A stretch of DNA of 64,000 bases, taken from positions 2,853 to 66,852 of the forward strand of contig JARRKE010000006.1 of the NCBI GenBank assembly GCA_037388465.1, read 5' to 3'. The DNA is from Gammaproteobacteria bacterium. GTDB lineage: Bacteria; Pseudomonadota; Gammaproteobacteria; SpSt-1174. The notes beneath the pieces are model-generated. The model was given only the letters and a program-made list of their open reading frames with translations. It had not been told where the DNA came from and made no database searches. The translations under genes were made by a program, and so were the position numbers. Below, one piece after another: positions 1,373 to 28,040 of this stretch (position 1 is its first letter; each line of letters begins with the position of its first letter).

Positions 1373-1382
1373 GGAGTCGTCC

Positions 1383-1955: not shown

Positions 1956-1962
1956 GCGGCGC

Positions 1963-3501: not shown

Positions 3502-3549
3502 ACCGGGGCATCCGTATCCAACCAATGACCCCGATAAAATAGGAGCGAG

Positions 3550-4071: not shown

Positions 4072-4169
4072 CCTGCCGGTCGGGATAGAACCTGCTGGCC
4101 GTTTGTCCAACGTGCATGCCGGCACGGACCGGCATGCCAATCGTTTCAGCCCGGGAGGAGGAGGCGCAT

Positions 4170-5383: not shown

Positions 5384-5449
5384 CGCCGGCCTCACGGGGC
5401 GTGGATTAAAGGGCAGGACCGTACGGCACTGAGATGCGGCCAGCTTAGT

Positions 5450-5746: not shown

Positions 5747-5900
5747 AATGCGTCCTCCGGATTATTGCTGGCTCATCCGTAAAGCATAGTTCAGCGCGAC
5801 CGACTTTCAATTTCCCCTCCCACTGTTCAGCTTTCGAGCAGCCTTGGATATACTCCATAAAAAAACAAAGGCTTAATACCAGCGGGGTAGCAGTCTCAAT

Positions 5901-6449
5901 ATGGCCGGCCAGGGTGATGATCCATCCGCGGGGAAACCGCCGAATTTCCCCTTTCGCGATGCAGAGGGTGTGTTGGTGACAGAAGAGCGCAGAAAACGAG
6001 AACGACGCAAATGGGGTAAGACGCCGGAGTACCCCTTTCGCGATTCGGACGGGAATCTGGTGACGCACAACCGGCGTCGGATCATCGACCGCCGTTCGAG
6101 CGACGTCGATCTCCGGGAGTCACTGGGTGAGCATCTCCGGCTCAAGTACCAGGACAAGGAGTTCGTCGTCTCGTTCGACGCCCCACCGTTCACGGTTGGC
6201 CGTTCCAAAGAGGCCGATCTGCAGATCGACGAGAGTTTTGTCTCGCGCCTGCATGCGACCATCGAATGCCGTCACGGCGAATTCTTTCTCAAGGATCAGA
6301 GCCGCAACGGCACCTTGATCAAGGGCGAGGACGGCGGCGTGACCCGTCTGGCCAAATCGGAAACCGTGCTGCAGGGCGAAGGCGTGATCAGTTTCGGCGA
6401 GCGGTTCGAGCACAACGAAGGGCACTTGGTCGAATACAGGCTGGGCTGA
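5901..6449 (+). CDS. FHA-domain protein with two N-terminal Arg-rich repeats
   Basis: The C-terminal FHA signature reads GR...SRLHA...NGT. The N-terminus has duplicated [FY]PFRDxxGxLVTxxRR..RR motifs. Confidence 0.8.
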   Translation: MAGQGDDPSAGKPPNFPFRDAEGVLVTEERRKRERRKWGKTPEYPFRDSDGNLVTHNRRRIIDRRSSDVDLRESLGEHLRLKYQDKEFVVSFDAPPFTVGRSKEADLQIDESFVSRLHATIECRHGEFFLKDQSRNGTLIKGEDGGVTRLAKSETVLQGEGVISFGERFEHNEGHLVEYRLG

Positions 6450-6455
6450 CCGGTT

Positions 6456-6968
6456 TCAGTCTCTTCGCAAGAATCCACTGGGCTGGCCCTGCCCATCGAT
6501 CAGACCGTGGTCGTACAGCCATGCCCTGGCGTCCTCTGCGTCGCGCTCGAACCAGGCGCGGGCGTTGCCCAACCGAAAGCTGTATCCCCAGCTGTCCATA
6601 TCCCGCATCGTCCGCCCGGCGCTGTAATGGGGCAGCCGGTCCGCGAGCAGGATTTGCAGATAGCAGACGCCGTTCTCCTCCTGCGGCTCGCCGCCGGCGT
6701 CGGTGTCCAGCGCGCGGCGTCGCGCCCGGTCCATGCACAGGTAGTGACAGCCCTCATGCAGTGCGGAATGGACGGGCGTGTCGGCGCGGACGTAGAGGGC
6801 ATCGCCCCGCAGCCCGGCCTCGGGCGGTCCCCAGTAGCTGCCGGGGATCTCGCCGGAAACCTCCTCTACCCGCAGCCCGTAGGGCGCGAACAGCGCCCGT
6901 AGCGGGGACAGGCCGATGTCGCCGACGAGGACGACATCGGGGGCTGGAGCGGGCTCAGCGTATGGCAT
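6456..6968 (-). CDS. Hypothetical protein with an HExxH motif
   Basis: 170 aa. HEGCH is the only motif I recognise. It overlaps the stop of the upstream rhodanese gene by 14 nt, which suggests an operon. Confidence 0.5.
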   Translation of the reverse strand: MPYAEPAPAPDVVLVGDIGLSPLRALFAPYGLRVEEVSGEIPGSYWGPPEAGLRGDALYVRADTPVHSALHEGCHYLCMDRARRRALDTDAGGEPQEENGVCYLQILLADRLPHYSAGRTMRDMDSWGYSFRLGNARAWFERDAEDARAWLYDHGLIDGQGQPSGFLRRD

Positions 6969-7761
6969 TGAGCATGCTGTCGTAATACGCCTTCGCGCCG
7001 CCCTGCATGAAGTAGTAGCCGGTCAGCCCTTCCTCCTGCAGAAAGTATTGCAGCCAGCGGACCTGGTGGCCGGTGGCGTCGTATACCAGCAGGGTCTTGT
7101 TGCCGCGTTTTGCTTGCTCGACGTACTGTTTGAGCTGGTCGTTGTCCAGCGGCACGTTGTGCTGTATGGCGGGGAAGAACTCCAGGCCTTCGCGCTGATA
7201 ACGGTCGCGGATATCCAGCACGATGGCGTTGCCGGTGTGTGCGCGCTTGGCGAATTCCTCTGGGTCGAGCTCGTGCGCCGCCAGCTGCTTCTTGCTGATC
7301 AGTTTGTCGGGATCGAGGGGGGATTTGCCCAGCAGTACCGACAGGTCGGGGTGGGCGTGCGCCCAGTCGAAGATGCCGGCATCGAACGCGAAGACGTTGT
7401 CGACCCCGGCGAGACGCGCACGTTTGGTGCCCTTGTAGGACTTCATGCAGGTATGCCCGTTGCAGTAGAACACGATCGGGGTGTCCGGCTCGGCCTTGCG
7501 CAAGGCGATGATCTGTTGTTCGAAGTCCTTCGAGGTCAGCGGGATGTTCTTGGCGCCCTTGATATGCAGCGTGTTGTACTCGTAGTCCGAGCGGACGTCG
7601 ACGATTGCGGCCTTGTCGTACGTCTTGTGCAGGTTCTCAAGGGTGATGGTTTTATCCAGTGGGTAGAGCCTCCTGCCCGGGAAATCCTCCTCTGCTGCGT
7701 TAGCCTGCGTGATAAACAAAAAGACGATAAAAACACTCAACCATTTCGTGATGGCTTGCAT
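6955..7761 (-). CDS. Periplasmic tandem-rhodanese protein
   Basis: Signal peptide MQAITKWLSVFIVFLFITQANA. There are two rhodanese-like halves. The first carries a Cys loop (YCNGHTCMKS) and the second lacks Cys. Confidence 0.7.
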   Translation of the reverse strand: MQAITKWLSVFIVFLFITQANAAEEDFPGRRLYPLDKTITLENLHKTYDKAAIVDVRSDYEYNTLHIKGAKNIPLTSKDFEQQIIALRKAEPDTPIVFYCNGHTCMKSYKGTKRARLAGVDNVFAFDAGIFDWAHAHPDLSVLLGKSPLDPDKLISKKQLAAHELDPEEFAKRAHTGNAIVLDIRDRYQREGLEFFPAIQHNVPLDNDQLKQYVEQAKRGNKTLLVYDATGHQVRWLQYFLQEEGLTGYYFMQGGAKAYYDSMLNAIR

Positions 7762-7823
7762 AGTTATGGTATTTCCAATGGCAGTTACGACGGGAGCCAG
7801 CGTAAGCCGGCCCCCGTCGAAGT

Positions 7824-8054
7824 TCAAGCTGCTTTGTCGCTTGATCTCGCCGTTGGAGGGAGTGCCGCCATCAGGTGTTCGATCATTTGTGCACGGGTTG
7901 CTTCATCCAGGTCGTCGACCTGGGTGCTCCAGCGAAAACCGAATTCCCGGGCCGTACGGCTCAGGGCCTCGTGGTGGTAGCGAAGTGCGGGGTATTTGCG
8001 TTTGGCGCTGAGATGGATCTTGACGTTCACGATGTCGGCTTCACAAAAACACAT
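7824..8054 (-). CDS. Hypothetical small protein (76 aa)
   Basis: A near-perfect SD (AAGGAGGTGA) lies 9 nt upstream of ATG 8054. Codon bias looks coding. It is the first gene of the rhodanese operon. Confidence 0.55.
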   Translation of the reverse strand: MCFCEADIVNVKIHLSAKRKYPALRYHHEALSRTAREFGFRWSTQVDDLDEATRAQMIEHLMAALPPTARSSDKAA

Positions 8055-8099
8055 ACCAGATCACCTCCTTGCATGATGGACTGCCTGAATCTGGGGGTC

Positions 8100-8290
8100 T
8101 AGGTCATGTATATGTGATTTTCAAGCGGCATATTATTAATTTATTAAATATAAGCTGTATTTTTTCCATAAAAAACACGCCAATTTTACAAAAAATCAGT
8201 GTATTAGTAGATTTTATTTTTAAATGTTATCTGGGTTTTCGGTGTGTATAATCGGGCATGAAATCAGGTAAATGTGATTAGTTAATAATT
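8100..8290. promoter_or_regulatory. AT-rich divergent promoter region (contains TATAAT at 8247..8252 on the + strand)
   Basis: This is a conspicuous AT-rich island in otherwise GC-rich DNA. It lies between divergent genes. TGTGTATAAT sits ~60 nt upstream of the cytochrome c ATG. Confidence 0.4.
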
Positions 8291-8315
8291 GCAAAAAATA
8301 GATAAGGAGGATGGT

Positions 8316-8645
8316 ATGAGGTCATACAGGCTGCTTGCGGCGACGCTGTGCCTGCTCATGCTGCCCGCGGGAGGGGCATGGGCTGCCGGCGATCCGGTCG
8401 CGGGCAAACAGAAGGCGGCGTTGTGTCTGGGCTGTCACGGGGTGAAAACCTACTTCAATGTCTATCCCACTTACCACGTGCCGAAACTCGGTGGCCAGCA
8501 TGCGCAATACATCATTGCTGCGCTCGAGGAGTACAAGTCCGGCCAGCGGTCTCATGGGACCATGCATGCCCAGGCCTCCAGCCTGAGCAAGCAGGACATG
8601 GAAGACATCGCGGCCTTTTTCGCCAGCTACAAACAACGCAAATGA
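8316..8645 (+). CDS. Monohaem class I c-type cytochrome (c4/c553-like), secreted
   Basis: AAGGAGG precedes the ATG. Signal peptide present. Haem motif CLGCHG with a downstream Met ligand region (GTMHA). Confidence 0.85.
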   Translation: MRSYRLLAATLCLLMLPAGGAWAAGDPVAGKQKAALCLGCHGVKTYFNVYPTYHVPKLGGQHAQYIIAALEEYKSGQRSHGTMHAQASSLSKQDMEDIAAFFASYKQRK

Positions 8646-8661
8646 GCGAGCGGGGGAAATA

Positions 8662-9018
8662 ATGAAGAACAAGTCTCTGATTATGACCGCCGCCCTGAGT
8701 TTTATCCTGGCCGTACCCGCGGTGCATGCCGCCGGTGACCCGGTTGCCGGCAAGCAGAAGGCGCAGATGTGCGTGGCCTGCCACGGCAAGGGCGGGCATT
8801 CGACCAACCCGGCCTATCCGGTGCTGGCGGGGCAGTACGAGGATTACCTGTTGCGTGCCCTCAAGGAATACAAGTCCGGTGCGCGCAAGAATCCGATCAT
8901 GACCAGCATGGTGGCGAGCCTGACCGACCAGGATATGGAGAACCTTGCGGCCTATTTCTCCAGCCAGAAGGCGTTGGTAACGCCGGCGATCGAGGATTTC
9001 TCACCCAAGAACTTCTAA
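8662..9018 (+). CDS. Monohaem class I c-type cytochrome, paralogue of the preceding gene
   Basis: Signal peptide present. AAGDPVAGKQKAQMCVACHG is nearly identical to the neighbour's AAGDPVAGKQKAALCLGCHG. Confidence 0.85.
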   Translation: MKNKSLIMTAALSFILAVPAVHAAGDPVAGKQKAQMCVACHGKGGHSTNPAYPVLAGQYEDYLLRALKEYKSGARKNPIMTSMVASLTDQDMENLAAYFSSQKALVTPAIEDFSPKNF

Positions 9019-9416
9019 AAAGCAACGGGACTTGCGGTTGCGAACCTGAGCGCGCCCTTGGGGGAGCTTTTTTTGTTGTGGAGTGCGGTCAGGTGTTTGC
9101 GCCGGTGTTGCTCGGTGGGTATCCGGGTTTCCAGGTAAAAACGCGCCTGTTCGCGGGCGGCGACCCCGGGCGCGCCCGCCTGGGCGACGACCTCGGCCTT
9201 GAGCGCGGCCAGGATGACGGCCGCCGCCTGCCGCTTGTCGAGCTCGGTAATGCGCTGCCAGACGGCGGGAAAGAAATACAGGCGGATCAGGTCGGGGCGG
9301 GTGAGTAGCAGCATCTTGACCACGTTGCGCAGTTTCTGGTCAGTTTCCGACCAGCTCTCGACCAGGTCGGAGGCGATCAGCTTGTGGATTTCCTCTTTGC
9401 CCTTGGCGGTTATCAT
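9015..9416 (-). CDS. Hypothetical protein
   Basis: Open frame with high third-position GC. The start is uncertain (9416 or 9437). Confidence 0.45.
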   Translation of the reverse strand: MITAKGKEEIHKLIASDLVESWSETDQKLRNVVKMLLLTRPDLIRLYFFPAVWQRITELDKRQAAAVILAALKAEVVAQAGAPGVAAREQARFYLETRIPTEQHRRKHLTALHNKKSSPKGALRFATASPVAF

Positions 9417-9497
9417 GCGCGGCGCGTGGTGCCTCAAAGGACATCACTATATCATTTGGGGTTCAAGCCCGAGATGCGAAGACCGATAGGACGAATC

Positions 9498-9887
9498 ATG
9501 AAGATCCAAGGAGCCAAGCTGATCGAGTTGATGCGCGGATGTCTGACCGAGATGTCCAACTCGCTCAAGGCCATGCGCCAGGATACCGAGTCCAAGCCGG
9601 ATGCCGCCTATGCGGTTCCGCGCAATGGCGTGCTGTTCAGCCTGGATATGAATATTGCCGTGATCCACATGCTCGGCTTGCGTCTGCACCGCGCGCAGGA
9701 AGAAGGTGAGGTCGAACTCAACGACGGAGAACGCGTGGTCATCGGCATGTCGGCAACCTTCATGGGAGACGAGGTCGCGGCCCTGATCGACGACGCCCTG
9801 GAGGGGCATGCCGTGGACGAGGCGCGTTTGGAGGCGATCCTGAGTGCGGGGACGCACCCGACGGACGGCTCCAGCGCCGTCCACTGA
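9498..9887 (+). CDS. Hypothetical protein (129 aa)
   Basis: ATG at 9498. Coding-like codon bias. No recognised motif. Confidence 0.45.
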   Translation: MKIQGAKLIELMRGCLTEMSNSLKAMRQDTESKPDAAYAVPRNGVLFSLDMNIAVIHMLGLRLHRAQEEGEVELNDGERVVIGMSATFMGDEVAALIDDALEGHAVDEARLEAILSAGTHPTDGSSAVH

Positions 9888-9895
9888 ATGGGTGT

Positions 9896-10129
9896 TCAGT
9901 TCGCCTCTTCCGGCGTCAGAGTGGCGCGGATGCTGAGCGCGTGAATGGCGCCGCTGTCGATCTGGGGCCGGACGGTGGCGTAAACCAGCTGGTGCCGCTT
10001 GATGGTGGTGAGGCCGGTAAATTGCGGACTGACCACTCGGGCCTCGTATTTCCCGCCTTCGCCGGTGACCTCGACCTCGGCGTTTTCGAGGCCTGCCTCG
10101 ATCAGTGTCTTGATTTCCTCAGGATTCAT
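9896..10129 (-). CDS. ibaG: BolA-family protein (IbaG/YrbA-like)
   Basis: 77 aa. The ...RHQLVY...IHALSI... pattern is characteristic of BolA/IbaG. Confidence 0.8.
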   Translation of the reverse strand: MNPEEIKTLIEAGLENAEVEVTGEGGKYEARVVSPQFTGLTTIKRHQLVYATVRPQIDSGAIHALSIRATLTPEEAN

Positions 10130-10190
10130 TGCGGATAGCCGGTTTGTTGTTGGGGCGGCCGCGCAGCATACCGCAGACCCACCTGGTCGG

Positions 10191-11075
10191 TCAGCCGTGA
10201 GGCGGTAATTCGTCGCTCAGGACCACGCGGTGGTCGCCGCCTTCCGTCAGTCCCAGATAATGCATAATCGCCGGCATGTGCTTTTCCAGCACTTGCTGCA
10301 TGTACGGCGAATGCAGGTGGGCGTAATCGATGCCCTCGATCCATCCATAGATGGAATCCTTCAGGTTGTCGACGTCGTTGACGTTGCCGTGGATGTCATG
10401 CACCAGGCGCCGATACTCGGGCAGGGTCGGGCTGACGTCGAGCTCGTCGAAGATCGTCTTGAGTGCGCCGAGCATACCCGCCGCATTTTCCGCCAGGCCC
10501 AGATCATGCGGCGTGACGACCGTCGCCTCGCTCGCCGGCGTGTCGACCCACAGCTTGAAGCTCAACGTCTGCAGCGTGTGATAGAGCGGCTCTTCGGAGA
10601 TCAGGATGACCAGGATATTTTGCGGATGCGCGCGCAGGGTCACGTCCCGGTAGCTCCACACGCCGGTGCCGATGAAATCGGCCAAACGCAGGTGATGGCG
10701 GAACTCGGCGAGTTGCAGTTGGTCCAGGATGAGTGCCACGCGATCACCTTCGCTCAAGGCGCAGGCCTCGCTCAGGGTGCGGTCGAGCTCGCTGACCGGC
10801 TGCTCACCGAGGGGTTCCTCCGTTTCGCGCGGAGGAAGAATACGCACCGGTTCGGGCATGTCCGCCTGCGGTATGAATTCGTGATATAGCACGTGCGGAT
10901 ATTCCAGCGCCTGAGCCAGGGCGTGTGCAAAGGCCGTTTTGCGCCGTCCGGGCGCTCCGCCGAGCGCGAGTGCGCGAACGTGTTCGATGGGGGCCGAAAG
11001 CAGGCAGCGTACAGCGTAGCTGTAATCGTGGTTGGATACGAAACCGTATTGTGCGAGGCGTGGCTTGAGGTCCAT
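10191..11075 (-). CDS. Conserved hypothetical protein with a degenerate P-loop (AAA-like)
   Basis: GGAPGRRKTAFAHALA resembles the GPPGTGKT Walker A of AAA+ proteins. The start could be 11075 or 11111. Confidence 0.5.
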   Translation of the reverse strand: MDLKPRLAQYGFVSNHDYSYAVRCLLSAPIEHVRALALGGAPGRRKTAFAHALAQALEYPHVLYHEFIPQADMPEPVRILPPRETEEPLGEQPVSELDRTLSEACALSEGDRVALILDQLQLAEFRHHLRLADFIGTGVWSYRDVTLRAHPQNILVILISEEPLYHTLQTLSFKLWVDTPASEATVVTPHDLGLAENAAGMLGALKTIFDELDVSPTLPEYRRLVHDIHGNVNDVDNLKDSIYGWIEGIDYAHLHSPYMQQVLEKHMPAIMHYLGLTEGGDHRVVLSDELPPHG

Positions 11076-11089
11076 GGGCGTTTCCGGGG

Positions 11090-11596
11090 TCACCAACGGA
11101 ATTTGTCCCACAGTTCCGGATGGGCCCAGAAACGTGGGTTGAGCCAGTCGGGCGTGCGCTTGTAGGTGGATACGTCGTAGCGGTACAGGACTTGTGTTTC
11201 GCTGCGTCCCACTTCGCTCAGGCCGAAGGCGATGAGATCGCGTGCCGGCCAGCGGTCGGTGGCGGCATCGACGAGGATGTAGAGCCGGCGGGCGTAGATG
11301 TCGCGCAGGCTCGAAATCAGGTGCTCACCCTCGCTGCGTGGCAGTTGCTCCAATGCACCGGCGAGTACCGCGCAGTCCCACCGCTGCGTGTCGCTCGCGG
11401 CGGTCAGTCCGTCTTCGGGCGCGACCTGCCGGCATTCCGTGATTTCAAGCGCCGTGTCCAGGCATGCGCCTAACGCGGCATGCGCCGGAGAGGCGAGCAG
11501 CAACAGCCGGTCGTGCGCGCCCTGTCCGACGTCTGTGGCCAGGGCCCTGCAAAGTGGTTGATCATCGCTGTACATGATTTCCGAGTATGGATGCAA
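11090..11596 (-). CDS. Conserved hypothetical protein
   Basis: 168 aa with coding-like bias. It abuts the downstream gene, which suggests an operon. C-terminal ...NPRFWAHPELWDKFRW. Confidence 0.5.
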   Translation of the reverse strand: MHPYSEIMYSDDQPLCRALATDVGQGAHDRLLLLASPAHAALGACLDTALEITECRQVAPEDGLTAASDTQRWDCAVLAGALEQLPRSEGEHLISSLRDIYARRLYILVDAATDRWPARDLIAFGLSEVGRSETQVLYRYDVSTYKRTPDWLNPRFWAHPELWDKFRW

Positions 11597-14105: not shown

Positions 14106-15024
14106 GCCGCCGTTTCCCGGTTTTGTGCGTTGAGGCGCCGTGCTCTTTCTTTGTGGCCGGAGGACTCTTTTTGTCGGTTGCTCCGGGCCGTTCATGGTGC
14201 TCGTTGGCCGGCCAGACCAGCAGGACCTCCCGGGAGCGTTCCAGGTGGGCCAGCGGACGGACCTCGATCTGGGCAAAGGCCTCGGCGGGGTCGCGGTCGA
14301 TCTTGACCACCTCGCCGACCGGATAGTCGGGCGGGTAGCGCCCGCCCAGCCCGGAGGTGCTGACGATGTCGCCCACACGGATGTCCGCGCTGTTGGGCAG
14401 GCTGCGCAATTCCAGGCGTTGCGGGTTGCCGGTGCCTACCGCGAGGCTGCGCAGCCCGTTGCGGTTGACCTGGACGGGGACGGCCTGGCTGGGGTCGGAG
14501 ATCAGCGTTACCCGTGCGGTGTTGTAGTTGACGTCGGTGACCTGACCCATGACGCCGCGTGCATCGAGCAGCGGCTGGCCGAGATAGACGCCGTCATGGC
14601 TGCCTTTGTTGATGAGGATCTCCTGGCGGAACGGCGCCATGTCGGCCGACAGCAGTTCGGCGACGGTGAAGTGTGCCTTCACGTGTGAGGAGGCGTGCAG
14701 CAGCTGGCGCAGGCGGTCGTTTTCCTCTTCCAGTGCGGCCAGGCGCTGCAGGTGCGCGTCGTCGAGCAGCGCCTCGCGGCGCAACTTGCGGTTTTCGCCG
14801 ACCAGGGTGTTGTGGGTGACGAGCTGCTCGGCCAGCCAGTCGCCGATGCGAAACGGCAGGTCGACGACGTACTGGACCGGATAGACGAGCAGATTGAGCC
14901 CCTTGCGCAGGGCGTCGACGTGATGGAAGCGCTGGTCAGCCGTCATCAGTGCCAGCGACAGCAGCACGAACAGCAGCAGCTTGATGTGCAGGGAAGGGCC
15001 GTGGAAGAAGAGGGACTTCTTAAT
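14098..15024 (-). CDS. mreC: Rod shape-determining protein MreC (probable ATT start)
   Basis: Homology to E. coli MreC (GPSLxIxL, TM helix, coiled coil) extends upstream of the track's GTG at 14967. Between that GTG and the in-frame stop the only start-like codon is ATT (15024..15022), 5 nt after GAGGAGGAA. Confidence 0.85.
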   Translation of the reverse strand: MKKSLFFHGPSLHIKLLLFVLLSLALMTADQRFHHVDALRKGLNLLVYPVQYVVDLPFRIGDWLAEQLVTHNTLVGENRKLRREALLDDAHLQRLAALEEENDRLRQLLHASSHVKAHFTVAELLSADMAPFRQEILINKGSHDGVYLGQPLLDARGVMGQVTDVNYNTARVTLISDPSQAVPVQVNRNGLRSLAVGTGNPQRLELRSLPNSADIRVGDIVSTSGLGGRYPPDYPVGEVVKIDRDPAEAFAQIEVRPLAHLERSREVLLVWPANEHHERPGATDKKSPPATKKEHGASTHKTGKRRHG

Positions 15025-15054
15025 GGTTTCCTCCTCGACGACGGCGGATGGGGT

Positions 15055-16257
<1,203 letters not shown>

Positions 16258-21407: not shown

Positions 21408-22337
21408 TTGAGCCAAGCGATCAGCTCGTACATGTCCGAGGAAAATTTCGAAGCCACCATCATGTTTGTCGACGTTGTCGACAGCACGAGTCTGTATGAA
21501 ACGCTGGGGGATCAGGATGCGCAAGCGGTGATCGCCAAATGCCTGCGCATGGCGGAGACTAATATTCGTATGAGTCGCGGTGAGACCATCAAGGTTTCAG
21601 GCGATGAGGTTATGGCCCTGTTCACCAGCGAAGAAGCCGCGGTTCGTGCAGCGCTGAAGAATCTCGATACCATTCCGCAGGCCGATATGGGGCATGGCGT
21701 GCATGTCGAATTGCATACCGGGCTGTATCACGGCCCCGTGATTCGTGCCGAGGGCGATGTGTACGGCGATGCGGTGAATGTCGCCGCCCGGCTGACGTCT
21801 ATGTCGCAGCCTGGTCAAATTCTGACCACGCGTCAGACCGCAGAAAGTCTGCGTGCCGACCTGAGGGAGCGCACGCGCAAGCTTTACGACACCACGGTCA
21901 AGGGTCGCGAGCAGCCGCTGGAGGTGTATGAGGTACTGGGCGTCAGTGAGGGTGATCCCACCGGTATTCTGGCGCCCGAAACCGATTATATGGCGGCACG
22001 CCAAGTGTTGAAGTTGCGCTGCGGCGAAAAGCTGATCGAGATCCCGCCGTTCCGCAAGGAGTTCATCCTGGGGCGCGATGAAAGCTGTGATCTGATACCT
22101 CGCGACACGACGTTCGTGTCACGCAAGCATGCGCGCATTGCCTACCGGCGTGACAAGTTCGTGTTGCAGGATCACAGCACCAACGGCACCTACATCAAGT
22201 CACAGGACGGCAACGTGGTCCACCTCCATCAGGAGGCCTTGCCGTTGACCGGGCGCGGAAAGATCAGCCTGGGCAAGATCATCACCCCGAACGACAAGTT
22301 GCTGATCGAGTTTTCGGTGGAAGAGCGCAAGATCTGA
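21408..22337 (+). CDS. Class III nucleotidyl cyclase fused to a C-terminal FHA domain
   Basis: Cyclase motifs FVDVVDST, KVSGDEVMALF and GDAVNVAARL. FHA motifs GR...SRKHA...NGT. The track start is TTG 21408, and ATG 21432 (MSEENFE) is an alternative. Confidence 0.85.
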   Translation: MSQAISSYMSEENFEATIMFVDVVDSTSLYETLGDQDAQAVIAKCLRMAETNIRMSRGETIKVSGDEVMALFTSEEAAVRAALKNLDTIPQADMGHGVHVELHTGLYHGPVIRAEGDVYGDAVNVAARLTSMSQPGQILTTRQTAESLRADLRERTRKLYDTTVKGREQPLEVYEVLGVSEGDPTGILAPETDYMAARQVLKLRCGEKLIEIPPFRKEFILGRDESCDLIPRDTTFVSRKHARIAYRRDKFVLQDHSTNGTYIKSQDGNVVHLHQEALPLTGRGKISLGKIITPNDKLLIEFSVEERKI

Positions 22338-22353: not shown

Positions 22354-23445
22354 TTAATCGAAGGACGGTGCCGGTTCCCCCGATGTCGAATAGCCGGCCG
22401 GCTTGCGGAAGGATGATTTGTCGATGGCCTGGAGATAGGCCTCCTCTTCGGAAATCTGGCTCGAATCGAGCAGTCTGCGCAATGCGGAATCCATGGTGAC
22501 CATGCCCTGCAGGGCGCTGCTCTGCATGATCGATTCGAGCTGTTCCGACTTGCCTTCGCGAATCAGGTTTGCCACCGCCGGGGTATTGATCAGTACCTCG
22601 ACGGCCGCTGCGCGTCCCTGCCCGTCCGCCTTGCGTACCAGTTGCTGGGAGACGATGCCCCGCAGCGAGGTGGACAGCATGGCGCGCACCTGGGACTGCT
22701 TGTTGGCCGGGAAGGTGTTGATGATGCGGTCGACGGTGGTGGGCGCACGGTTGGTGTGCAGCGTGCCCATGACCAGGATGCCCGTTTCCGCTGCGGTAAC
22801 CGCCAGGCTGATGGTGTCCAGGTCACGCATTTCACCCACCAGAATGACGTCCGGATCCTCACGCAGCGCGGAGCGCAAGGCGTTGGCAAAGCTTTTGGTA
22901 TGCAGCCCGAGCTGGCGTTGGGAGATCAGGCAGCGCTTGCGCGGGTGCACGAATTCGATCGGGTCCTCGATGGTGATGATGTGGCCGCTGCGGTTTTCGT
23001 TGATCTCGTTCACCATTGCGGCCAGCGTCGTCGACTTGCCCGAACCGGTCTTGCCGGTAACCAGAACCATGCCCTGTTTGTGGGTGCACAGAGAGGTCAG
23101 CACCGGTGGCAGATTGAGTTCGCTCAGCGTGCTGCTGCGGGTGGGAATGGCGCGAAACACGGCGCCGAGCCCGTTGATCTGCCGAAAGGCGTTGACACGG
23201 AAACGGGAGACGTTTTCGATCTCGTAGGCGAAGTCCGCCCCGTCTTCGCGCTCGAAAATGGCGCGGGAGTGAGGTGGAATGATCTCATTCAGGAACTCCG
23301 TCACCTTGTCGTTGGAAAGCGGCGTATCGTCGATAACGGTGAGCTCACCATAAATACGTGCGCGCAGTGGATCGCCGGCGATCACGTGCAGGTCGGATCC
23401 GCGACGTTCGATCAGGCTCGTCAGTATGTTGTCGATTTCTTTCAT
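22354..23445 (-). CDS. PilT/PilU-family hexameric ATPase (paralogue 2)
   Basis: Walker A GKTGSGKST, Walker B DPDVILVGEMRD, His box GTLHT and a PilT-like AVANLIREGK motif. Confidence 0.85.
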   Translation of the reverse strand: MKEIDNILTSLIERRGSDLHVIAGDPLRARIYGELTVIDDTPLSNDKVTEFLNEIIPPHSRAIFEREDGADFAYEIENVSRFRVNAFRQINGLGAVFRAIPTRSSTLSELNLPPVLTSLCTHKQGMVLVTGKTGSGKSTTLAAMVNEINENRSGHIITIEDPIEFVHPRKRCLISQRQLGLHTKSFANALRSALREDPDVILVGEMRDLDTISLAVTAAETGILVMGTLHTNRAPTTVDRIINTFPANKQSQVRAMLSTSLRGIVSQQLVRKADGQGRAAAVEVLINTPAVANLIREGKSEQLESIMQSSALQGMVTMDSALRRLLDSSQISEEEAYLQAIDKSSFRKPAGYSTSGEPAPSFD

Positions 23446-23485
23446 GGAGCGATTCGTGGAGTGGAGTGAGCGCGATGAGCAAACC

Positions 23486-24586
23486 TCATTTGCTGCTCCC
23501 TGCTAGGCTGACCTGCGGCAAAAGATTGGTATCGGTGACGTAACGCTGGAACTGTTTCTTGTCGGTGGCGAAGTGGTAGGCCGCATCCGGATCGATTTCC
23601 TTGTTCTCGATGGCTTCGAGCAGGGCCTGATCCATGAGCTGCATGCCCTGTTCGCGGCCGGTCTGCAACTGCGAAGGGATCTGATGGGTCTTGTCCGTCA
23701 TGATCATCTTGGAAATGGCGCGGGTCATGACCATGACCTCGACGATCGCCTTGCGGGCGCGGCCGTCGGGGGTCTTGACCAGCACCTGGGTGATCACCCC
23801 ATGCAGGTTCTGGGAGAGGAAGGTCTTGCCCTGCTCGCGCTCTTCCGGCGGCAGGGAGTCGATGATGCGGTCCAGTGACTTGGTCGCGCTCGTGGTGTGC
23901 ATGGTGCCGAGAACCAGATGGCCGGTTTCGGCGGCGACCATGGCCATGCGGATGGAATCCGAGTCGCGCATCTCACCCACCAGGATAACGTCCGGATCCT
24001 CGCGCATCGCGGAACGGATCCCGTTGGCGAAGGTGTCGACGTGGGTACCGACCTCGCGCTGGATGACCTGTGACTTTTTGCTCTTGTGCACGAACTCGAT
24101 CGGGTCTTCGAGGCTGATGATGTTCAGCGAGCGCGAATCATTGAGGTGGTCGATGATTGAAGCGAGGGTGGTGGACTTACCGGTACCGGTGGAGCCGGTC
24201 ACCAGCACCATGCCCTGGTGATGGTCGGCGAGTCGTGTGACGACAGGCGGCAGTCCGAGTTCGTTGAGCGGTTTGATATGCGAGGGAATGTGCCGGAAGG
24301 TTGCGCCGATCCCGCCCAGCTTGCGAAACACGTTGGTGCGGAATCGGCCGATGTCGTTGGCGATGTAGGAGAAATCCAGGTCTTCGCCTTCCTTCAGGCG
24401 CGCCTTCTGTGCGGGAGTGAGTATCTCCTGGACGTACATTTCCAGTTCGCGTTCCCCGAGGTCACGGAATTTGATCGGCAGGATATCGCCGTTCATGCGC
24501 AGCATGGGCGGGACGCCGACGGCAAGATGCAGGTCGGAACAACCCTGCTCCCTGCCCAGTTTTAAGAATGCATCGATTCTCGCCAT
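23486..24586 (-). CDS. PilT-family hexameric ATPase (divergent paralogue 1)
   Basis: Walker A GSTGTGKST, Walker B DPDVILVGEMRD and His box GTMHT. The PilT AIRNLIRE position reads AISKMIMTD. Confidence 0.85.
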   Translation of the reverse strand: MARIDAFLKLGREQGCSDLHLAVGVPPMLRMNGDILPIKFRDLGERELEMYVQEILTPAQKARLKEGEDLDFSYIANDIGRFRTNVFRKLGGIGATFRHIPSHIKPLNELGLPPVVTRLADHHQGMVLVTGSTGTGKSTTLASIIDHLNDSRSLNIISLEDPIEFVHKSKKSQVIQREVGTHVDTFANGIRSAMREDPDVILVGEMRDSDSIRMAMVAAETGHLVLGTMHTTSATKSLDRIIDSLPPEEREQGKTFLSQNLHGVITQVLVKTPDGRARKAIVEVMVMTRAISKMIMTDKTHQIPSQLQTGREQGMQLMDQALLEAIENKEIDPDAAYHFATDKKQFQRYVTDTNLLPQVSLAGSSK

Positions 24587-24592
24587 ATGACC

Positions 24593-26980
24593 TCAGTGCA
24601 GAAGCGTGGACAGGGTTTGCGACACCTGCTCCATGTTTTGATAGCGTTTGGTCTTGTCGACCGCCATCATCTTGGCGACCACCGCACTCAATGTACGGCT
24701 GACCTCGGGGTTGACCTCGTGCAGTGGTTGCGCCTTGCCCTGAACGTGCTGGTACATCAGGGACATGTTGTCCTCGCCGTCATAGGGTGAATGGCCGGAC
24801 AACATTTCGTAAAGAATACACCCCAGGCTGTAAATGTCACTCTGGGCGTCGACGGGCTTGCCGAGCACCTGTTCGGGTGCCATGTAGCGCGGCGTACCGA
24901 CCACGATACCGGTCTTGGTGAGACGCGTGTCGCCGACGTCGTGTGCGGCGGCGATGCCGAAATCCACCACCTTCACTTCTTCCTTGTCGTTGATCAGCAC
25001 GTTGTTGGGTTTAAGGTCGCGATGGATCACGCCCTGCGCATGCGCGGCTGACATGCCGTCGGCGATGTCCTTGGCGATCTTGAGGGCGCGCTCGATCGGC
25101 AGGGGTTTTTTCTCCGCCATTTCCTGACCCAGTGCATGCGACGGGAAGTACTCCATCGACAGGGCGAACAGGCCCGCGGCGGTGGTGAAGTCGTGGATGC
25201 GGATGACGTTGGGATGGGTGATGCGGCGTGCGAAACGCAGCTCGCGGGTAAAGCGTTTGATCATGTCCTGATCGGCCGCCATGGCGGGGTGCAGAATCTT
25301 GAGCACCAATTGCTCACGGACCATGGTGTCCTCAACCAGCAATACGGTGCCGAACGCCCCTTTACCGACCTGTTGGATGTAGCGGTAGCGGTTGTCGATC
25401 AGGTCGCCTTCGCGCAGGCGGCTCACGTCGAGCAGTTTGTTGTCCGGGGTTTCCTCGCTGGCCTTGCGATAGGTGCTGACGAGGCCGGCATCCGGTTGAA
25501 GTTTGGGCTGCGCCTCTGCGCTTCCCAACGGGCGATCCTGGAATTCGGTCTTGTTGAAGTGTTTCTCGAGGTCGCGAATGACCTGGTCGGCGGCGTCCTG
25601 AACCTCTTCTTCGGCCTTGCGGGTATGCTTGCTCAGGGCGGTGATCACCTTTTCCATGTTGCGCGAGTCGGTGATCTCCTTGAGGGTGTAGACCGCCTCG
25701 ATCTGGATATTGGGTACCGGCTGTTTGAGCTGGTCGATCACCGCCGGGATGATCTTTTCGTCGCCCAGCGTGGCCAGGGCGCGCAGCACGACCGGCGCGG
25801 CTTCCTGGTCCTTTTTCAGCATCTGCACCAGGGACGGCACCGCGGCCTTGTTGCCGATGGCGGCCAGGGCGTCCACGGCGCGTTCGCGCACCCACCAGTC
25901 CTCGTCGTCCAGGGCGCGCAGCAGATAGGAAAGCGAGCGTTCGTCGCGGGTGGCGTTGAGAATCTCGATGGCGGAACGGCGGATGTATTCGTCCTTGTCG
26001 CGGATCAGCTCGACCACGGCCTCGACCACGCGTTTGCCACCGATCTTGGCGAGCGCGTCGGCCGCGCGCGCCCGCACCCACCAGTCGGCATCGCGGGCGG
26101 ATTCCAGCAGGTCCTTGACGTCGCGGGCGCTGCCTATTTCATTGAGCACTTCCACCGCGCCGCGGCGGACGTATTCGGATTCGTCCTTGAGCAACGGGAC
26201 GAGGTACTTGATGGTCTGCGGGTCGCGTAGCTTGATCATCGCGTCGACCGCCTTGTTCTGGACGTTGATGTCCGCGTCGCGCATCAGCTTGGCCAGCTGA
26301 CTCACGTCCATGGTCAGGTCCATGCCGGAGAGGGTGTCGAGCGCCGCCTGTTTGACCAGCGGGTTTTTGTCCGACAGCAATCCCTGCAGCGCGGTGCGGA
26401 CCTGCGGTGTATTGAAGCGGGCCAGCAGGCGCACGATGTTGACGCGAATGCTCTGGTCGGTTCCCGACAACCGGTTCAGCAGTTCGGGGATCATCGATTC
26501 GTCCACGATCTCACTGATGAGGTTGAACAGGGCCTTGCGGTCGTTGGCCTCGAGGGTATAGGCCTGTTTGAGGAGGTTGTTCTTGTCGAGCGTCTTGCCG
26601 CTGGCCGACAGCGCCTTGATCAGCCCGGATTTGCTGACGCTGGATTCGGAGAACAGGGGGACCAGCTCATTGGGGTTATACGCGGACGGCCGTCGCTGCA
26701 GGACCTCGACGATCCGGTTCACCACGGTCGGGTTGGGGTTGGCCAGCCCGGTGGCGATGGGGTGCACCGTCTTGTGGTCGAGCATGCGGGCCAGCAGTGC
26801 GATGATCTGTTCCGCCTCCTCCCCGCTGGCCTGGGCCAGGGCGTCAATGAGCCTTGGCACGGAGCTTTCGGCCCAGCGCCGCAGCTTATCGACGTCTTGA
26901 TTGCCAACAGACTGGAGCTGGCCGGGGGCCAGCAGCTTACCCAGCAAGCGGTCAACCTGAATGTTTCGTATCAGGCTCAC
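24593..26980 (-). CDS. Cytoplasmic Ser/Thr protein kinase with a long N-terminal HEAT-repeat array
   Basis: The C-terminal Hanks kinase has GKGAFGTV, VLK, HRDLKPNNVLI, DFG and GTPRYMAPE. About 520 aa of repeated ...D.D..VR..A..AL..IG... HEAT/PBS-lyase-like units precede it. No TM segment. Confidence 0.9.
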   Translation of the reverse strand: MSLIRNIQVDRLLGKLLAPGQLQSVGNQDVDKLRRWAESSVPRLIDALAQASGEEAEQIIALLARMLDHKTVHPIATGLANPNPTVVNRIVEVLQRRPSAYNPNELVPLFSESSVSKSGLIKALSASGKTLDKNNLLKQAYTLEANDRKALFNLISEIVDESMIPELLNRLSGTDQSIRVNIVRLLARFNTPQVRTALQGLLSDKNPLVKQAALDTLSGMDLTMDVSQLAKLMRDADINVQNKAVDAMIKLRDPQTIKYLVPLLKDESEYVRRGAVEVLNEIGSARDVKDLLESARDADWWVRARAADALAKIGGKRVVEAVVELIRDKDEYIRRSAIEILNATRDERSLSYLLRALDDEDWWVRERAVDALAAIGNKAAVPSLVQMLKKDQEAAPVVLRALATLGDEKIIPAVIDQLKQPVPNIQIEAVYTLKEITDSRNMEKVITALSKHTRKAEEEVQDAADQVIRDLEKHFNKTEFQDRPLGSAEAQPKLQPDAGLVSTYRKASEETPDNKLLDVSRLREGDLIDNRYRYIQQVGKGAFGTVLLVEDTMVREQLVLKILHPAMAADQDMIKRFTRELRFARRITHPNVIRIHDFTTAAGLFALSMEYFPSHALGQEMAEKKPLPIERALKIAKDIADGMSAAHAQGVIHRDLKPNNVLINDKEEVKVVDFGIAAAHDVGDTRLTKTGIVVGTPRYMAPEQVLGKPVDAQSDIYSLGCILYEMLSGHSPYDGEDNMSLMYQHVQGKAQPLHEVNPEVSRTLSAVVAKMMAVDKTKRYQNMEQVSQTLSTLLH

Positions 26981-26994
26981 GGCGCCCCCGGGTT

Positions 26995-27480
26995 TTAATC
27001 TCCGCTAGACGGTTCGTCGAGCGGGGTGATTCTGACGATATAGCTCTTGTGTATCAGCACGACCTGATTATTAGCGGTATAGAGCCGCAGAAAACGATGA
27101 TCGAGAATATTGATGTAGTCATAGAGGCGTTGATGATTCGGCGGCAGAAATTCGCGAATCTCACCCTTGATCAGGCTGCCGTCCATCAACTGCGCCCGGC
27201 AACTGATCACGGTCATCCCCGGGGATTCCGGCGGCGGTTCCTCTTCGAATTCGGCACGCACGATGGAGTTTTTGTTGTAAAAACGGAATTCGTCCTCCGC
27301 CGTGACATGCATGACCAAAAATGGTGCATCGTTGTTGAGCACCTCGATGGGGTCTTCCGCACCCTCGTGGTAGTCGCTGCGTTCCTGCAGGAATATATGG
27401 CCGACGACCGCCCCTTCGGGGTGAATCCATAGCCGCACGGGCTTGCGCAGCTTAGGTATTTTTAGTGCGCTATCTTCCAT
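26995..27480 (-). CDS. Hypothetical protein with an internal duplication (first gene of the kinase operon)
   Basis: 161 aa. Both halves share FLxxxxTAxxx...K.xIVR (PFLVMHVTAEDEFRFYNKNSIVRAEF and RFLRLYTANNQVVLIHKSYIVRITP). There is a 14-nt gap to the kinase gene. Confidence 0.6.
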   Translation of the reverse strand: MEDSALKIPKLRKPVRLWIHPEGAVVGHIFLQERSDYHEGAEDPIEVLNNDAPFLVMHVTAEDEFRFYNKNSIVRAEFEEEPPPESPGMTVISCRAQLMDGSLIKGEIREFLPPNHQRLYDYINILDHRFLRLYTANNQVVLIHKSYIVRITPLDEPSSGD

Positions 27481-27555
27481 AAAAGATCATCGTCTTTGAG
27501 GTGATTGGTGGTCGTGTGACAGCCCTCGGGAACACGCTGCGCCCCCGATTAAGTC

Positions 27556-27584
27556 ATTTAAACAATGCCTTGAATTTATTGCAA
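27556..27584 (-). promoter_or_regulatory. Candidate sigma-70 promoter for the kinase/PilT operon
   Basis: The minus strand reads TTGCAA, a 17-nt spacer, then TTAAAT. It lies ~70 nt upstream of ATG 27480, in an AT-rich spacer. Confidence 0.3.
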
Positions 27585-27626
27585 TAAAAAAGAATACCGC
27601 GAAAATCACGGCATCGGGGGGATTTT

Positions 27627-28040
27627 CTAAAGATAGTGTCGCCAAATGGGCGGGCGGCCGTCGCGGCAACCGTGATCGCGATTGCGATAGTAATTGGCGA
27701 ACACCTTGCGCGCGCAATTGCGCTGGCAGGGCTGATTGTCGATACCCAGGTTCCCGCGTTCGATCTCTTCGGTATAGTCGCAGAGTGCCCGCTTGAGTTT
27801 GTAGAGCAGATTGTTGTTGATGTGGAAACCGATTTCGATCAACGCGTCTTCGATCTCGCGCAGGGTGAGTCGGGTCAGATCGTAGGAAATGGCGATGCGC
27901 TCCGCATCCAGGAGATGGGTCTGCAGCACGCCGTCCACGTCGCTGAGCAACAGCAGCGCCGATTGCGCCTGATTCGGGTCGGGGTGCGGTCCCCGGAACC
28001 CGATTTCACGATGCTTGATGAATTTATCCTCATCCCCCAT
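27627..28040 (-). CDS. Hypothetical protein with a Cys/Arg-rich C-terminus
   Basis: 137 aa with coding-like bias. The central region looks like a small alpha/beta domain. The C-terminus carries C..(x)..CQRNC...HGC. Confidence 0.5.
   Translation of the reverse strand: MGDEDKFIKHREIGFRGPHPDPNQAQSALLLLSDVDGVLQTHLLDAERIAISYDLTRLTLREIEDALIEIGFHINNNLLYKLKRALCDYTEEIERGNLGIDNQPCQRNCARKVFANYYRNRDHGCRDGRPPIWRHYL

Follow-up and report, generated by a model that had tools for sequence, protein, structure and literature searches.

What turns PilT-type motors on or off, or shifts them from one task to another, is still an open question in type IV pilus biology. Within the 64-kb stretch of gammaproteobacterial DNA analyzed here (hereafter, the window), a compact minus-strand gene cluster encodes a small protein, a HEAT-repeat Ser/Thr kinase and two PilT-family ATPases, designated A1 and A2 (Table 1). 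The locus raises the question of whether such motors are controlled by a kinase of their own, or whether these ATPases serve a process unrelated to pili.

Table 1. Coordinates of the cassette genes and of the adjoining features in the window
Feature	Position	Strand	Remarks
DUF6812x2-type small protein gene	26995..27480	-	161 aa, first gene of operon
HEAT-repeat Ser/Thr kinase gene	24593..26980	-	795 aa
A1, PilT-family ATPase gene	23486..24586	-	366 aa
A2, PilT-family ATPase gene	22354..23445	-	363 aa
Cyclase-FHA gene	21408..22337	+	Pfam Guanylate_cyc and FHA; convergent
Sigma-70-like promoter candidate, weak	27556..27584	-	TTGCAA-17-TTAAAT, read from the sequence
Terminator-like hairpin and T-run	27593..27615	-	3' of upstream ORF 27627-28040 (orf137)

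Operon layout and the HEAT-repeat kinase

The coordinates and domain assignments of the four minus-strand genes given in a preliminary description of this DNA were borne out by the open reading frames and by Pfam and NCBIfam profiles, as were the intergenic gaps of 14, 6 and 40 nt. All four products are soluble (Kyte-Doolittle(19) maximum below 1.5). The proposed sigma-70 promoter fared less well: the TTGCAA-17-TTAAAT element is present, but it is no better than chance, since it matches 8 of the 12 consensus positions and falls under the threshold of the promoter scanner, whose matches in the cassette region equal the number expected from shuffled sequence. The terminator-like hairpin supports the view that the cassette is a separate transcription unit, and the kinase, A1 and A2 genes are predicted to be co-transcribed. 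The upstream orf137 was considered as a fifth gene and rejected; it has no family match, the hairpin lies between it and the operon, and no homologue adjoins any other cassette examined.

The 795-aa protein had been described as a soluble kinase with an N-terminal HEAT/PBS-lyase-like array, and the Pfam profiles agree (HEAT_2, 185 bits in five stretches; HEAT_PBS, 66 bits; Pkinase, 185 bits). Its first ~130 residues are poorly conserved, residues ~150–475 correspond to a PBS-type HEAT-like solenoid, and residues ~525–795 to the kinase domain. Taking tandem ~31-residue repeats that match HEAT_2 or HEAT_PBS as the mark of PBS-lyase-type HEAT-like arrays, the solenoid belongs to this type, and a PDB search with this part of the protein matched alphaRep (E 3.5e-65) and PBS-HEAT repeat proteins. 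By its motifs the protein likewise qualifies as a Hanks-type Ser/Thr kinase: the Gly loop (GkGAFGTV), the catalytic Lys (LKIL/LKFL), HRDLKP, DFG and APE are kept in 20 orthologues. These orthologues (785–810 aa, 45–54% identity) are annotated merely as 'HEAT repeat protein', 'PBS lyase' or 'Ser/Thr kinase'. Because every catalytic motif is kept in the 20 orthologues, phospho-regulation of the motors, or by them, is a reasonable reading of these sequences.

The kinase-A1-A2 trio and its two ATPase clades

The notion that the cassette is conserved as a unit holds for the kinase-A1-A2 trio and fails for the four-gene set, of which the small protein is limited to certain lineages. The conserved core has the order HEAT-repeat Hanks kinase, A1, A2: the kinase gene lies upstream of an A1-type gene in 25 of the 26 genome-derived loci with a judgeable upstream region, and A2 follows A1 in 26 of 26 genome-derived loci. 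The trio occurs in Ectothiorhodospira, Thioalkalivibrio, Acidihalobacter, Chromatiales, Steroidobacteraceae and Woeseiaceae, and no HEAT kinase was found at 58 generic PilT loci (52% identity or less). The median gap between A1 and A2 is 8 nt; in 19 of 22 loci the two genes overlap or lie no more than 20 nt apart. The gap between kinase and A1 is equally short, or the genes overlap, in 11 of 22. The genes flanking the trio vary by lineage, with at least four different contexts, and in many lineages it stands amid housekeeping genes (mrp-dcd and metG-rnf). Neither a cognate PP2C phosphatase nor a pilus gene adjoins the cassette in any annotated locus. At one locus (L021), A1 and A2 are present without the kinase. 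An apparent kinase-ATPase fusion at another (L020; 1242-aa ORF) was discarded as a frameshifted kinase, reflecting an assembly error or a pseudogene. Taken as a whole, the cassette in the window is best explained as a local copy of a signalling-motor module that is conserved among gammaproteobacteria and has so far gone uncharacterised.

Both ATPases pass the NCBIfam model for the PilT/PilU family (TIGR01420, pilT_fam; cut-off 319.1 bits), A1 with 416.4 bits and A2 with 461.9 bits. The motifs of this family are Walker A, the Asp box, an atypical Walker B (Dh4GE) and a His box whose two histidines are reportedly needed for function (PMC6762196). For A1, the preliminary description was right about intact Walker A, Walker B and His-box motifs and about AISKMIMTD in the place of AIRNLIRE; both histidines of the His box are present, and the Asp box is intact as well. 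The consensus of the A1 clade at this position is AIaKlI.t. The AIRNLIRE-like C-terminal motif reported for A2 (AVANLIREGK) is likewise there, and an AvaNLIRqGK-type motif, with N, L, I and R kept, is conserved throughout its clade. Walker A, the Asp box and Walker B are present in A2 too, as is the second His-box histidine. The first (H222) is replaced by Ile or Val in 24 of 24 sequences of the A2 clade (Ile in the window), while this position is His in 96 of 100 other PilT-like sequences. The preliminary description had overlooked this missing histidine. The A1 clade, for its part, has an invariant Asn155 and Leu245 where a near-universal His and Phe stand elsewhere, the lost His being 99% conserved in other sequences. 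The Walker A Lys, the Asp-box Glu and the Walker B Glu are invariant in both clades. Lacking the first His-box histidine, A2 may be a poor or regulatory ATPase. That A1 and A2 each lack a different near-universal histidine hints at an obligate partnership, which could inform our view of PilT-PilU cooperation.

Whether the ATPases simply cluster with ordinary PilT or PilU was examined by phylogeny, and in 200 bootstrap replicates neither did. The A1 clade is monophyletic in 200 of 200 replicates (internal identity 65–93%, mean 74%), and so is the A2 clade (200/200). Canonical PilT proteins would be recognized by grouping with characterised PilT at high identity, about 70% between gamma- and betaproteobacterial representatives; the P. 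aeruginosa protein (PaPilT) and a betaproteobacterial PilT, for comparison, are 73% identical. A1 and A2 share 46% and 50% identity with PaPilT, and 36% and 39% with PaPilU. A2 grouped with PaPilT in none of the 200 replicates, nor did A1 ever join the PilU pair of P. aeruginosa and V. cholerae (0/200); by these measures neither ATPase is a canonical PilT or a PilU. A1 and A2 are two separate paralogue clades confined to the kinase-cassette context.

Pfam annotation of the 64-kb window agrees with the earlier statement that it holds no pilin, PilB, PilC, PilMNOPQ or secretin gene. Little about a role outside pili follows from this absence, because a pilT gene seldom stands with other pilus genes, and canonical pilT-pilU loci (in P. 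aeruginosa, for example) lie apart from the remaining pil operons. Thioalkalivibrio strains express genes for type IV pilus synthesis (PMC8092127).

The small protein and the FHA-bearing cyclase

The internal duplication claimed for the 161-aa protein proved real. Comparison within the close family gives a weak signal (BLASTP E 0.001; hhalign P 6e-4), and an alignment of 102 family sequences a firm one (hhalign probability 98.5%, E 1.5e-15, 63 columns): the protein consists of a DUF6812-type domain duplicated in tandem (DUF6812x2). It is related to DUF6812 (PF20660) and is not a member by Pfam's own standard, scoring 23 bits against a gathering cut-off of 27.1 bits; precomputed DUF6812 matches, some of them faint, exist for a homologue (P0006) and for remote relatives. 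A full-length AF2 model was too poor for use (pLDDT 57), and that of the C-terminal half reached a pLDDT of 78.7. Searched with Foldseek against the PDB, the half model returned nearly exclusively Hfq among its top ~40 matches (probability ~1.0; TM 0.5–0.65; rmsd 1.9–3.7 Å; E only 0.05–0.3), and as modelled the DUF6812-type domains are probably Sm/Hfq-like β-barrels, a fold defined by a bent barrel of five strands.

Together with the trio, the small protein occurs only in the Ectothiorhodospira, Thioalkalivibrio and Acidihalobacter lineage and on metagenome contigs. The kinase gene comes after it wherever the sequence is long enough, and every metagenome locus with enough sequence has the full four-gene order. 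Profile HMMs of the close family and of the wider set of 102 sequences, run with filters off, found no such gene upstream of the trio in the Chromatiales, Steroidobacteraceae and Woeseiaceae loci, and none upstream of generic pilT loci. Among remote relatives, a REC-DUF6812x2 fusion gene lies directly upstream of a pilT pair (L134), and DUF6812x2 genes overlap a PilT-like ATPase gene at two further loci (L138 and L139); three of five sampled relatives have no adjoining ATPase. Given that genes of remote relatives immediately precede those of other PilT-like ATPases, the 161-aa protein is probably an adaptor for ATPases of this family, a binding that we infer from gene order. This would give a probable role to a family of unknown function comprising about 650 sequence clusters. 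One DUF6812 relative adjoins an NTase-HEPN pair.

The cyclase gene that faces the operon is convergent with it, 16 nt stop to stop, as described; it is not a constant neighbour, with no FHA-cyclase adjoining the cassette in any of 27 genome-derived loci. Its product is a class III nucleotidyl cyclase with a C-terminal FHA domain (45.7 bits in Pfam). FHA assignment was based on a profile match together with the phospho-Thr-binding residues GR, SxxH and NG, which appear in the translation as LGRD, SRKH and TNG. Cyclase genes flank the cassette in other arrangements in 4 of 44 metagenome loci (L103, L109, L132 and L118), three of them FHA-GAF-cyclase fusions; overall, the association is seen in about 5 of roughly 70 loci. 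Separate lineages are represented, with FHA-plus-cyclase genes of two architectures and a further cyclase gene cut by a contig end, so that its other domains are missing. The FHA-cyclase is a possible lineage-specific output of the kinase, outside the conserved core. A cNMP-binding protein is encoded 10 kb away in the window.

Possible functions and relationship to known systems

The conserved kinase-motor unit suggests that Ser/Thr phosphorylation controls these pilus-type motors or reads them out. From gene order and motifs, we see about an even chance that the HEAT-kinase/A1/A2 module is a signal-controlled pilus-motor system linked to such phosphorylation. The HEAT solenoid would dock on the motor proteins, and phosphorylation of Ser/Thr residues by the kinase would set their activity, assembly or localisation; alternatively, the nucleotide state of the motor might switch the kinase. 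Via its retained PilT-type AxxNLIRxGK helix, A2 would engage the platform of a type IV pilus whose genes lie elsewhere, A1 would act through A2, like PilU through PilT, and the net outcome would be pilus retraction under signal control. In the Ectothiorhodospira, Thioalkalivibrio and Acidihalobacter lineage, the tandem Sm-like DUF6812 protein would be added as a motor adaptor, and in a few lineages, including that of the window, an FHA-bearing cyclase might recognize the phospho-Thr mark and translate it into a cyclic-nucleotide signal. We regard as unlikely a state- or mechano-sensing circuit in which an A1/A2 motor, possibly heteromeric, reports load or nucleotide state to the kinase, FHA-cyclases read the phospho-Thr thus formed and produce a cyclic nucleotide, and DUF6812x2 proteins are general adaptors that take input from Ser/Thr kinases or two-component receivers. 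Were it true, the circuit would be a Hanks/FHA counterpart of Pil-Chp/CyaB surface sensing, and the DUF6812x2 proteins a previously unrecognised adaptor family for PilT-type ATPases.

It is possible, if somewhat doubtful, that the module is independent of pili, with PilT-like hexamers that drive or sense some other process (e.g., remodelling or translocation of a cytoplasmic or membrane client) or serve as a nucleotide-state switch for a kinase with a phospho-Thr/FHA/cyclase output. Identity to gammaproteobacterial PilT is no higher for the A1 and A2 clades (46–50%) than for the PilT of Aquifex (52%), each of the two clades lacks an otherwise near-universal histidine, A1 lacks AIRNLIRE, the trio stands among mrp-dcd and metG-rnf housekeeping genes in many lineages, and the FHA-cyclase neighbours suggest a signalling output. 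A pilus gene adjoins the cassette in none of the 7 Pfam-annotated loci, nor in the 64-kb window, but canonical pilT and pilU are also unlinked from pilus operons. Against a role outside pili speak, furthermore, the AIRNLIRE-like AvaNLIRqGK motif kept across the A2 clade, the pilus genes that relatives carry and express (PMC8092127), and the PilT paralogues of Geobacter and Myxococcus, which in the papers retrieved were investigated as pilus motors (PMC5065972, PMC13584747). We consider it very improbable that the kinase and ATPases act jointly in an anti-phage or conflict system, even though PADLOC kinase models (PD-T4-6, mad6) match the kinase domain with good scores, genomic contexts differ within the Ectothiorhodospiraceae and an NTase-HEPN pair neighbours one DUF6812 relative. 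The PADLOC-DB 2.0 matches concern a generic kinase domain only, the ATPases yield weak P-loop matches and the small protein none, and a single housekeeping position of the trio is kept across several orders; because conservation is very high (A1 mean 74%) and each locus has one copy, vertical inheritance fits and defence islands do not. Scarcely credible is an ordinary pilT-pilU pair standing by chance beside an unrelated kinase: while both ATPases pass the PilT/PilU family model and other bacteria often carry PilT-like genes in tandem, synteny and phylogeny already contradict this reading, given the kinase linkage in 25 of 26 loci across several families and contexts (0/58 at generic PilT loci), the tightly spaced or overlapping genes, and clades set apart from PilT and PilU in 200 of 200 replicates.

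A full-text literature search on PilT, kinases, HEAT, FHA, DUF6812 and phosphorylation found no description of the cassette, and a kinase linkage of PilT or PilU was reported neither there nor in a 2024 review of pilus-motor cofactors, which lists no Ser/Thr kinase. Known regulators of PilT-type motors are c-di-GMP receptors, PilZ/FimX, response regulators and cyanobacterial Hfq. A kinase hard-wired to its own motor pair would offer a three- or four-gene system for direct tests of phospho-control, and the module is spread among many environmental gammaproteobacteria, including cultured Thioalkalivibrio, Ectothiorhodospira and Acidihalobacter.

The Pil-Chp surface-sensing circuit of P. aeruginosa, a phospho-relay, connects pilus motor activity with the adenylate cyclase CyaB and runs from ChpA/PilG via CyaB and cAMP to Vfr (PMC11656802). 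The cyclase beside the motors and the cNMP-binding protein 10 kb away in the window recall this circuit. Its components are not homologous to the cassette proteins, however, a cassette-adjacent cyclase is found in a minority of loci only, and the cassette would use Hanks kinase and FHA chemistry where Pil-Chp is a His-Asp relay. Small β-barrel regulators that act on pilus ATPases are known from Synechocystis, where the Sm-fold protein Hfq binds PilB1 (PMC7690835), and from Xanthomonas PilZ/FimX-PilB, where a small soluble β-barrel protein on the ATPase controls pilus function (PMC11656802). The predicted Hfq-like C-terminal half of the 161-aa protein would fit this scheme, although the protein has no detectable sequence similarity to Hfq or PilZ and is a tandem DUF6812-type duplication whose ATPase binding is suggested by gene order.

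Extra PilT motors beside the canonical one, namely PilT1-4 of Geobacter, the Myxococcus paralogues and PilT2 of Neisseria, resemble A1 and A2 in being additional family motors with specialised or regulatory roles (PMC5065972, PMC13584747). They are not described as kinase-linked in the papers retrieved, and the A1 and A2 clades stand apart from the Geobacter PilT4 and Aquifex PilT references. The closest parallels are with the PilT/PilU pair, in which PilU is a PilT-dependent motor without AIRNLIRE (PMC6762196). Both pairs consist of tandem genes for ~360-aa PilT-family ASCE hexameric ATPases, one with an AIRNLIRE-type motif (here A2) and one without (here A1). They differ in that A1 and A2 are not orthologues of PilT and PilU and never group with them in 200 bootstraps, in the reversed gene order, which places the motif-less A1 first, and in the histidines lost from A2 (the first of the His box) and from A1 (99% conserved elsewhere). 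Like pilT and pilU, the genes for A1 and A2 stand away from those of the pilus machinery; their linkage to a Hanks kinase (25 of 26 loci) has no reported parallel for PilT or PilU in the literature searched.

Organization of the cassette and its surroundings

The four minus-strand genes of the preliminary description, with intergenic gaps of 14, 6 and 40 nt, were recovered as tightly packed ORFs whose domain content agrees with the Pfam and NCBIfam assignments. Five HEAT_2 stretches (185 bits) precede a C-terminal Pkinase domain (185 bits) in the 795-aa protein, and the two ATPases, A1 and A2, score 416 and 462 bits against TIGR01420, the NCBIfam model of the PilT/PilU family, both above its cut-off of 319 bits. 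The sole family match of the 161-aa small protein is to DUF6812 (23 bits, below the 27.1-bit cut-off), and no hydrophobic segment is present in any of the four proteins. The sigma-70 promoter considered plausible before did not hold up: the hexamers TTGCAA-17-TTAAAT are present but match 8 of 12 consensus positions, they were not reported by the promoter scanner, and the match count of the region equals the shuffle expectation. Instead, a terminator-like hairpin just after the upstream ORF suggests that the cassette is a transcription unit of its own. This hairpin parts the cassette from a 137-aa ORF with coding-like GC3, which has no match in Pfam, NCBIfam or PADLOC and no homologue adjoining any other cassette.

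Other genes of the window annotated by Pfam comprise mreBC, gatCAB, hslO, prmC-prfA-hemA, rnf and a nif/draTG cluster, and there are, as had been noted, no pilus genes among them. The host, a diazotroph related to Ectothiorhodospira and Thioalkalivibrio, has a large nitrogen-fixation cluster containing rnfHEDCBA (with a gap lacking annotation at the rnfG position), nifL/nifA-like regulators, nifB, nifQ, draG, draT, nifHDK, nifEN and nifX. At the opposite end of the window, an EAL-domain gene read from its earliest in-frame start codon yields just the last ~100 EAL residues, and the gene start therefore probably lies outside the window edge.

Features of the window and of comparison loci or contigs (L numbers)
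Sequence	Feature	Length	Position	Strand	Remark
Window	EAL-domain C-terminal fragment (c-di-GMP phosphodiesterase)		29-415	+	near window start
Window	Stand-alone FHA-domain protein	182 aa	5901-6449	+	~16 kb from kinase
Window	Cyclic-nucleotide-binding-domain protein	223 aa	11480-12151	+	~10 kb from FHA-cyclase
Window	Class III cyclase with C-terminal FHA domain		21408-22337		convergent with cassette
Window	A2	363 aa	22354-23445	-	ORF
Window	A1	366 aa	23486-24586	-	ORF
Window	HEAT-repeat kinase	795 aa	24593-26980	-	ORF
Window	Small protein	161 aa	26995-27480	-	ORF
Window	TTGCAA-17-TTAAAT		27584..27556		
Window	Terminator-like hairpin		27615..27593		
Window	ORF directly upstream of cassette	137 aa	27627-28040	-	
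Window	Nitrogen-fixation cluster		38747-63942		
L021	A1-A2 pair without kinase		4000-11116		
L025	Distant trio version		1-3501		
L087	ECF sigma factor gene and ~250-aa gene		14671-15983		
L088	ECF sigma factor gene and ~250-aa gene		8114-9399		
L103	FHA-GAF-cyclase gene	695 aa	424-2511		
L118	Cyclase gene	~86 residues	10751-11008		truncated by contig end
L134	REC-DUF6812x2 fusion, pilT and second PilT-like gene		1798-4321		
L138	DUF6812x2 and PilT-like ATPase genes		3061-4390		
L139	DUF6812x2 and PilT-like ATPase genes		1878-3204		

A conserved unit of one kinase and two motor ATPases

The HEAT-repeat Hanks kinase, A1 and A2 (the trio) form a conserved and probably co-transcribed unit. A1 homologues form two clearly distinct groups, the first 66-75% identical and the next best at most 52%. 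Among the genome-derived A1-type loci whose upstream region can be judged, 25 of 26 carry the HEAT kinase directly upstream of the A1-type gene on the same strand, and an A2-type gene follows directly downstream in all 26 genome-derived loci with room for it; 58 generic PilT loci all lack this kinase. A1 and A2 are separated by a median of 8 nt and by at most 20 nt in 19 of 22 loci, with several overlaps, and kinase and A1 are within 20 nt or overlap in 11/22. The hosts of these genome-derived loci are Ectothiorhodospira, Thioalkalivibrio sulfidiphilus, Acidihalobacter, Chromatiales/Chromatiaceae, Steroidobacteraceae and Woeseiaceae. The cassette is flanked by prmC and the cyclase gene in the window, and trios elsewhere by an ABC transporter and glnE, by nth-DUF1841 and doxX, or by mrp-dcd and metG-rnf; since the flanking genes vary, the trio genes travel as a unit. 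The proximity of the trio to rnf in the window may be ancestral, as the trio directly adjoins metG-rnf in other lineages. The sole A1-A2 pair found without the kinase, in a Steroidobacteraceae MAG, adjoins tig-clpP-clpX, and an apparent kinase-A1 fusion (L020) proved to be a frameshift. A distant version on a Candidatus Eisenbacteria contig comprises a kinase, its N-terminus cut by the contig end (46% identity in the kinase domain), and two PilT-like genes (52% and 48%); it joins A1 in 166 of 200 bootstraps.

Immediately downstream of A2, on the other strand and convergent with the cassette, Thioalkalivibrio sulfidiphilus and an Acidihalobacter contig (L087, L088) carry a gene for an ECF sigma factor and a ~250-aa gene without a family match, the latter possibly encoding an anti-sigma factor; the window contains no such pair.

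The glycine loop, catalytic Lys, HRD, DFG and APE motifs are all kept in 20 kinase orthologues. The annotation of orthologues 785-810 aa long does not go beyond 'HEAT repeat protein', 'PBS lyase' or 'Ser/Thr kinase'. Identity between orthologues is ~57% in the kinase domain and ~40% in the HEAT region, with hardly any conservation over the first ~130 residues. Built from a 31-residue PBS-type repeat and matching alphaRep binder proteins (E 3.5e-65), the HEAT region is predicted to be a protein-binding solenoid.

The ATPases were placed by neighbour joining of 150 PilT-like sequences, including P. aeruginosa PilT and PilU (PaPilT and PaPilU, checked against 3JVU and 9N32), V. cholerae-type PilU, Aquifex PilT and Geobacter PilT4. 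A1 and A2 form one clade each in 200 of 200 bootstraps, and they never group with one another, nor with PaPilT or PilU. A1 is 46% and A2 50% identical to PaPilT (36% and 39% to PaPilU); PaPilT itself shares 73% identity with one betaproteobacterial PilT and 52% with the Aquifex protein. Judged from these sequences, A1 and A2 are orthologues of neither PilT nor PilU and represent dedicated clades with intact catalytic motifs: the Walker A Lys, Asp-box Glu and Walker B Glu are invariant in both. The motif AIRNLIRE, a feature of PilT that PilU lacks (PMC6762196), is lost from the A1 clade (consensus AIaKlI.t), as had been read from the window, and kept in recognizable form by A2 (AVANLIREGK in the window, AvaNLIRqGK in the clade). 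The His-box histidines, a pair described as needed for function (PMC6762196), are both retained by A1; its residue 155, before the Asp box, is an invariant Asn where 99 of 100 other sequences have His, and an invariant Leu replaces the Phe of 97/100 others. In A2, all 24 of 24 clade members have Ile or Val at residue 222, the position of the first His-box histidine, vs His in 96/100 others. The loss of a different near-universal His from each ATPase is compatible with an obligate, possibly heteromeric A1/A2 partnership, which is speculation.

Accessory partners of the trio

The small protein is encoded directly upstream of the kinase in the window and in Ectothiorhodospira, Thioalkalivibrio and Acidihalobacter loci. 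In 32 of 37 metagenome loci with >400 nt downstream of its gene, the kinase follows; the other five have just 400-615 nt, which cover the unconserved kinase N-terminus only, and all metagenome loci with enough room show the full four-gene order. It was not found at trio loci of other lineages. Conservation as a unit therefore extends to the trio and not, as had been envisaged, to all four genes, and the small protein is accessory.

Searching 1.84 billion representative proteins with a profile yielded 650 clusters of the family (E <=0.001; mostly 150-165 aa, full-length matches), with receiver-domain fusions among its members. Its internal duplication, already seen in the window, is real, since the two halves align with an hhalign probability of 98.5% (E 1.5e-15; 102-sequence alignment). 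A model of the C-terminal half (pLDDT 78.7) matches nearly exclusively Hfq among its top ~40 PDB hits (probability ~1.0, TM 0.5-0.65); as the E-values are only 0.05-0.3, this half is called probably Sm-like. In two of five remote contexts inspected, a PilT-like ATPase gene lies directly downstream of the gene for the tandem-duplicated domain (DUF6812x2): in one, a fusion to a receiver domain precedes pilT and a second PilT-like gene (L134), and in the other (L138, L139) the DUF6812x2 gene overlaps by 14 nt the gene of an ATPase with a ~140-aa N-terminal extension. No Hanks kinase is encoded at these loci, and no ATPase was found near the gene in the remaining three contexts. In view of these ATPase-adjoining relatives and the Hfq-PilB1 precedent (PMC7690835), our best guess is an adaptor for PilT-family ATPases.

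The cyclase with its FHA domain is indeed a convergent neighbour in the window, but it adjoins the cassette in 0/27 genome-derived loci and is accessory, outside the core. In four metagenome loci the cassette does adjoin a class III cyclase gene, though arranged differently: in L103, L109 and L132 a 695-aa FHA-GAF-cyclase gene is divergent from the small-protein gene, and in L118 the cyclase gene is found two genes downstream of A2, past a retropepsin-like protease, with only its first ~86 residues on the contig and the remaining domains beyond its end. That an uncommon domain pairing adjoins the same cassette in two different domain orders argues that cyclase and cassette are functionally linked in some lineages; the FHA domain would then read phospho-Thr made by the cassette kinase. 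The window also encodes a stand-alone FHA protein, possibly a further phospho-Thr reader, and a cyclic-nucleotide-binding-domain protein, whose candidate ligand is the cyclase product.

Relation to known PilT-type motors

Since pilT genes are normally unlinked from pilus genes, the lack of pilus genes nearby does not discriminate. Pilus genes are expressed by Thioalkalivibrio strains (PMC8092127). A pilus-independent role of the trio is a serious rival, which we regard as the less probable reading. A defence role is unlikely. So is a coincidental adjacency of ATPases and kinase, whose order persists amid changing flanks.

For a kinase-coupled motor pair, the HEAT array would dock the motor ATPases, and the kinase would control the motors or the motors the kinase. 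By analogy with PilT/PilU, A2 would engage the pilus platform in trans and A1 would act through A2 (PMC6762196). Overall, the observations of the preliminary description are confirmed and its interpretation is partly supported. Nothing like this cassette was described in the literature searched or in a 2024 review of pilus-motor cofactors. We regard the trio as a PilT/PilU-type motor pair of a new and widespread form, firmly tied to a Hanks kinase, and infer its mechanism.
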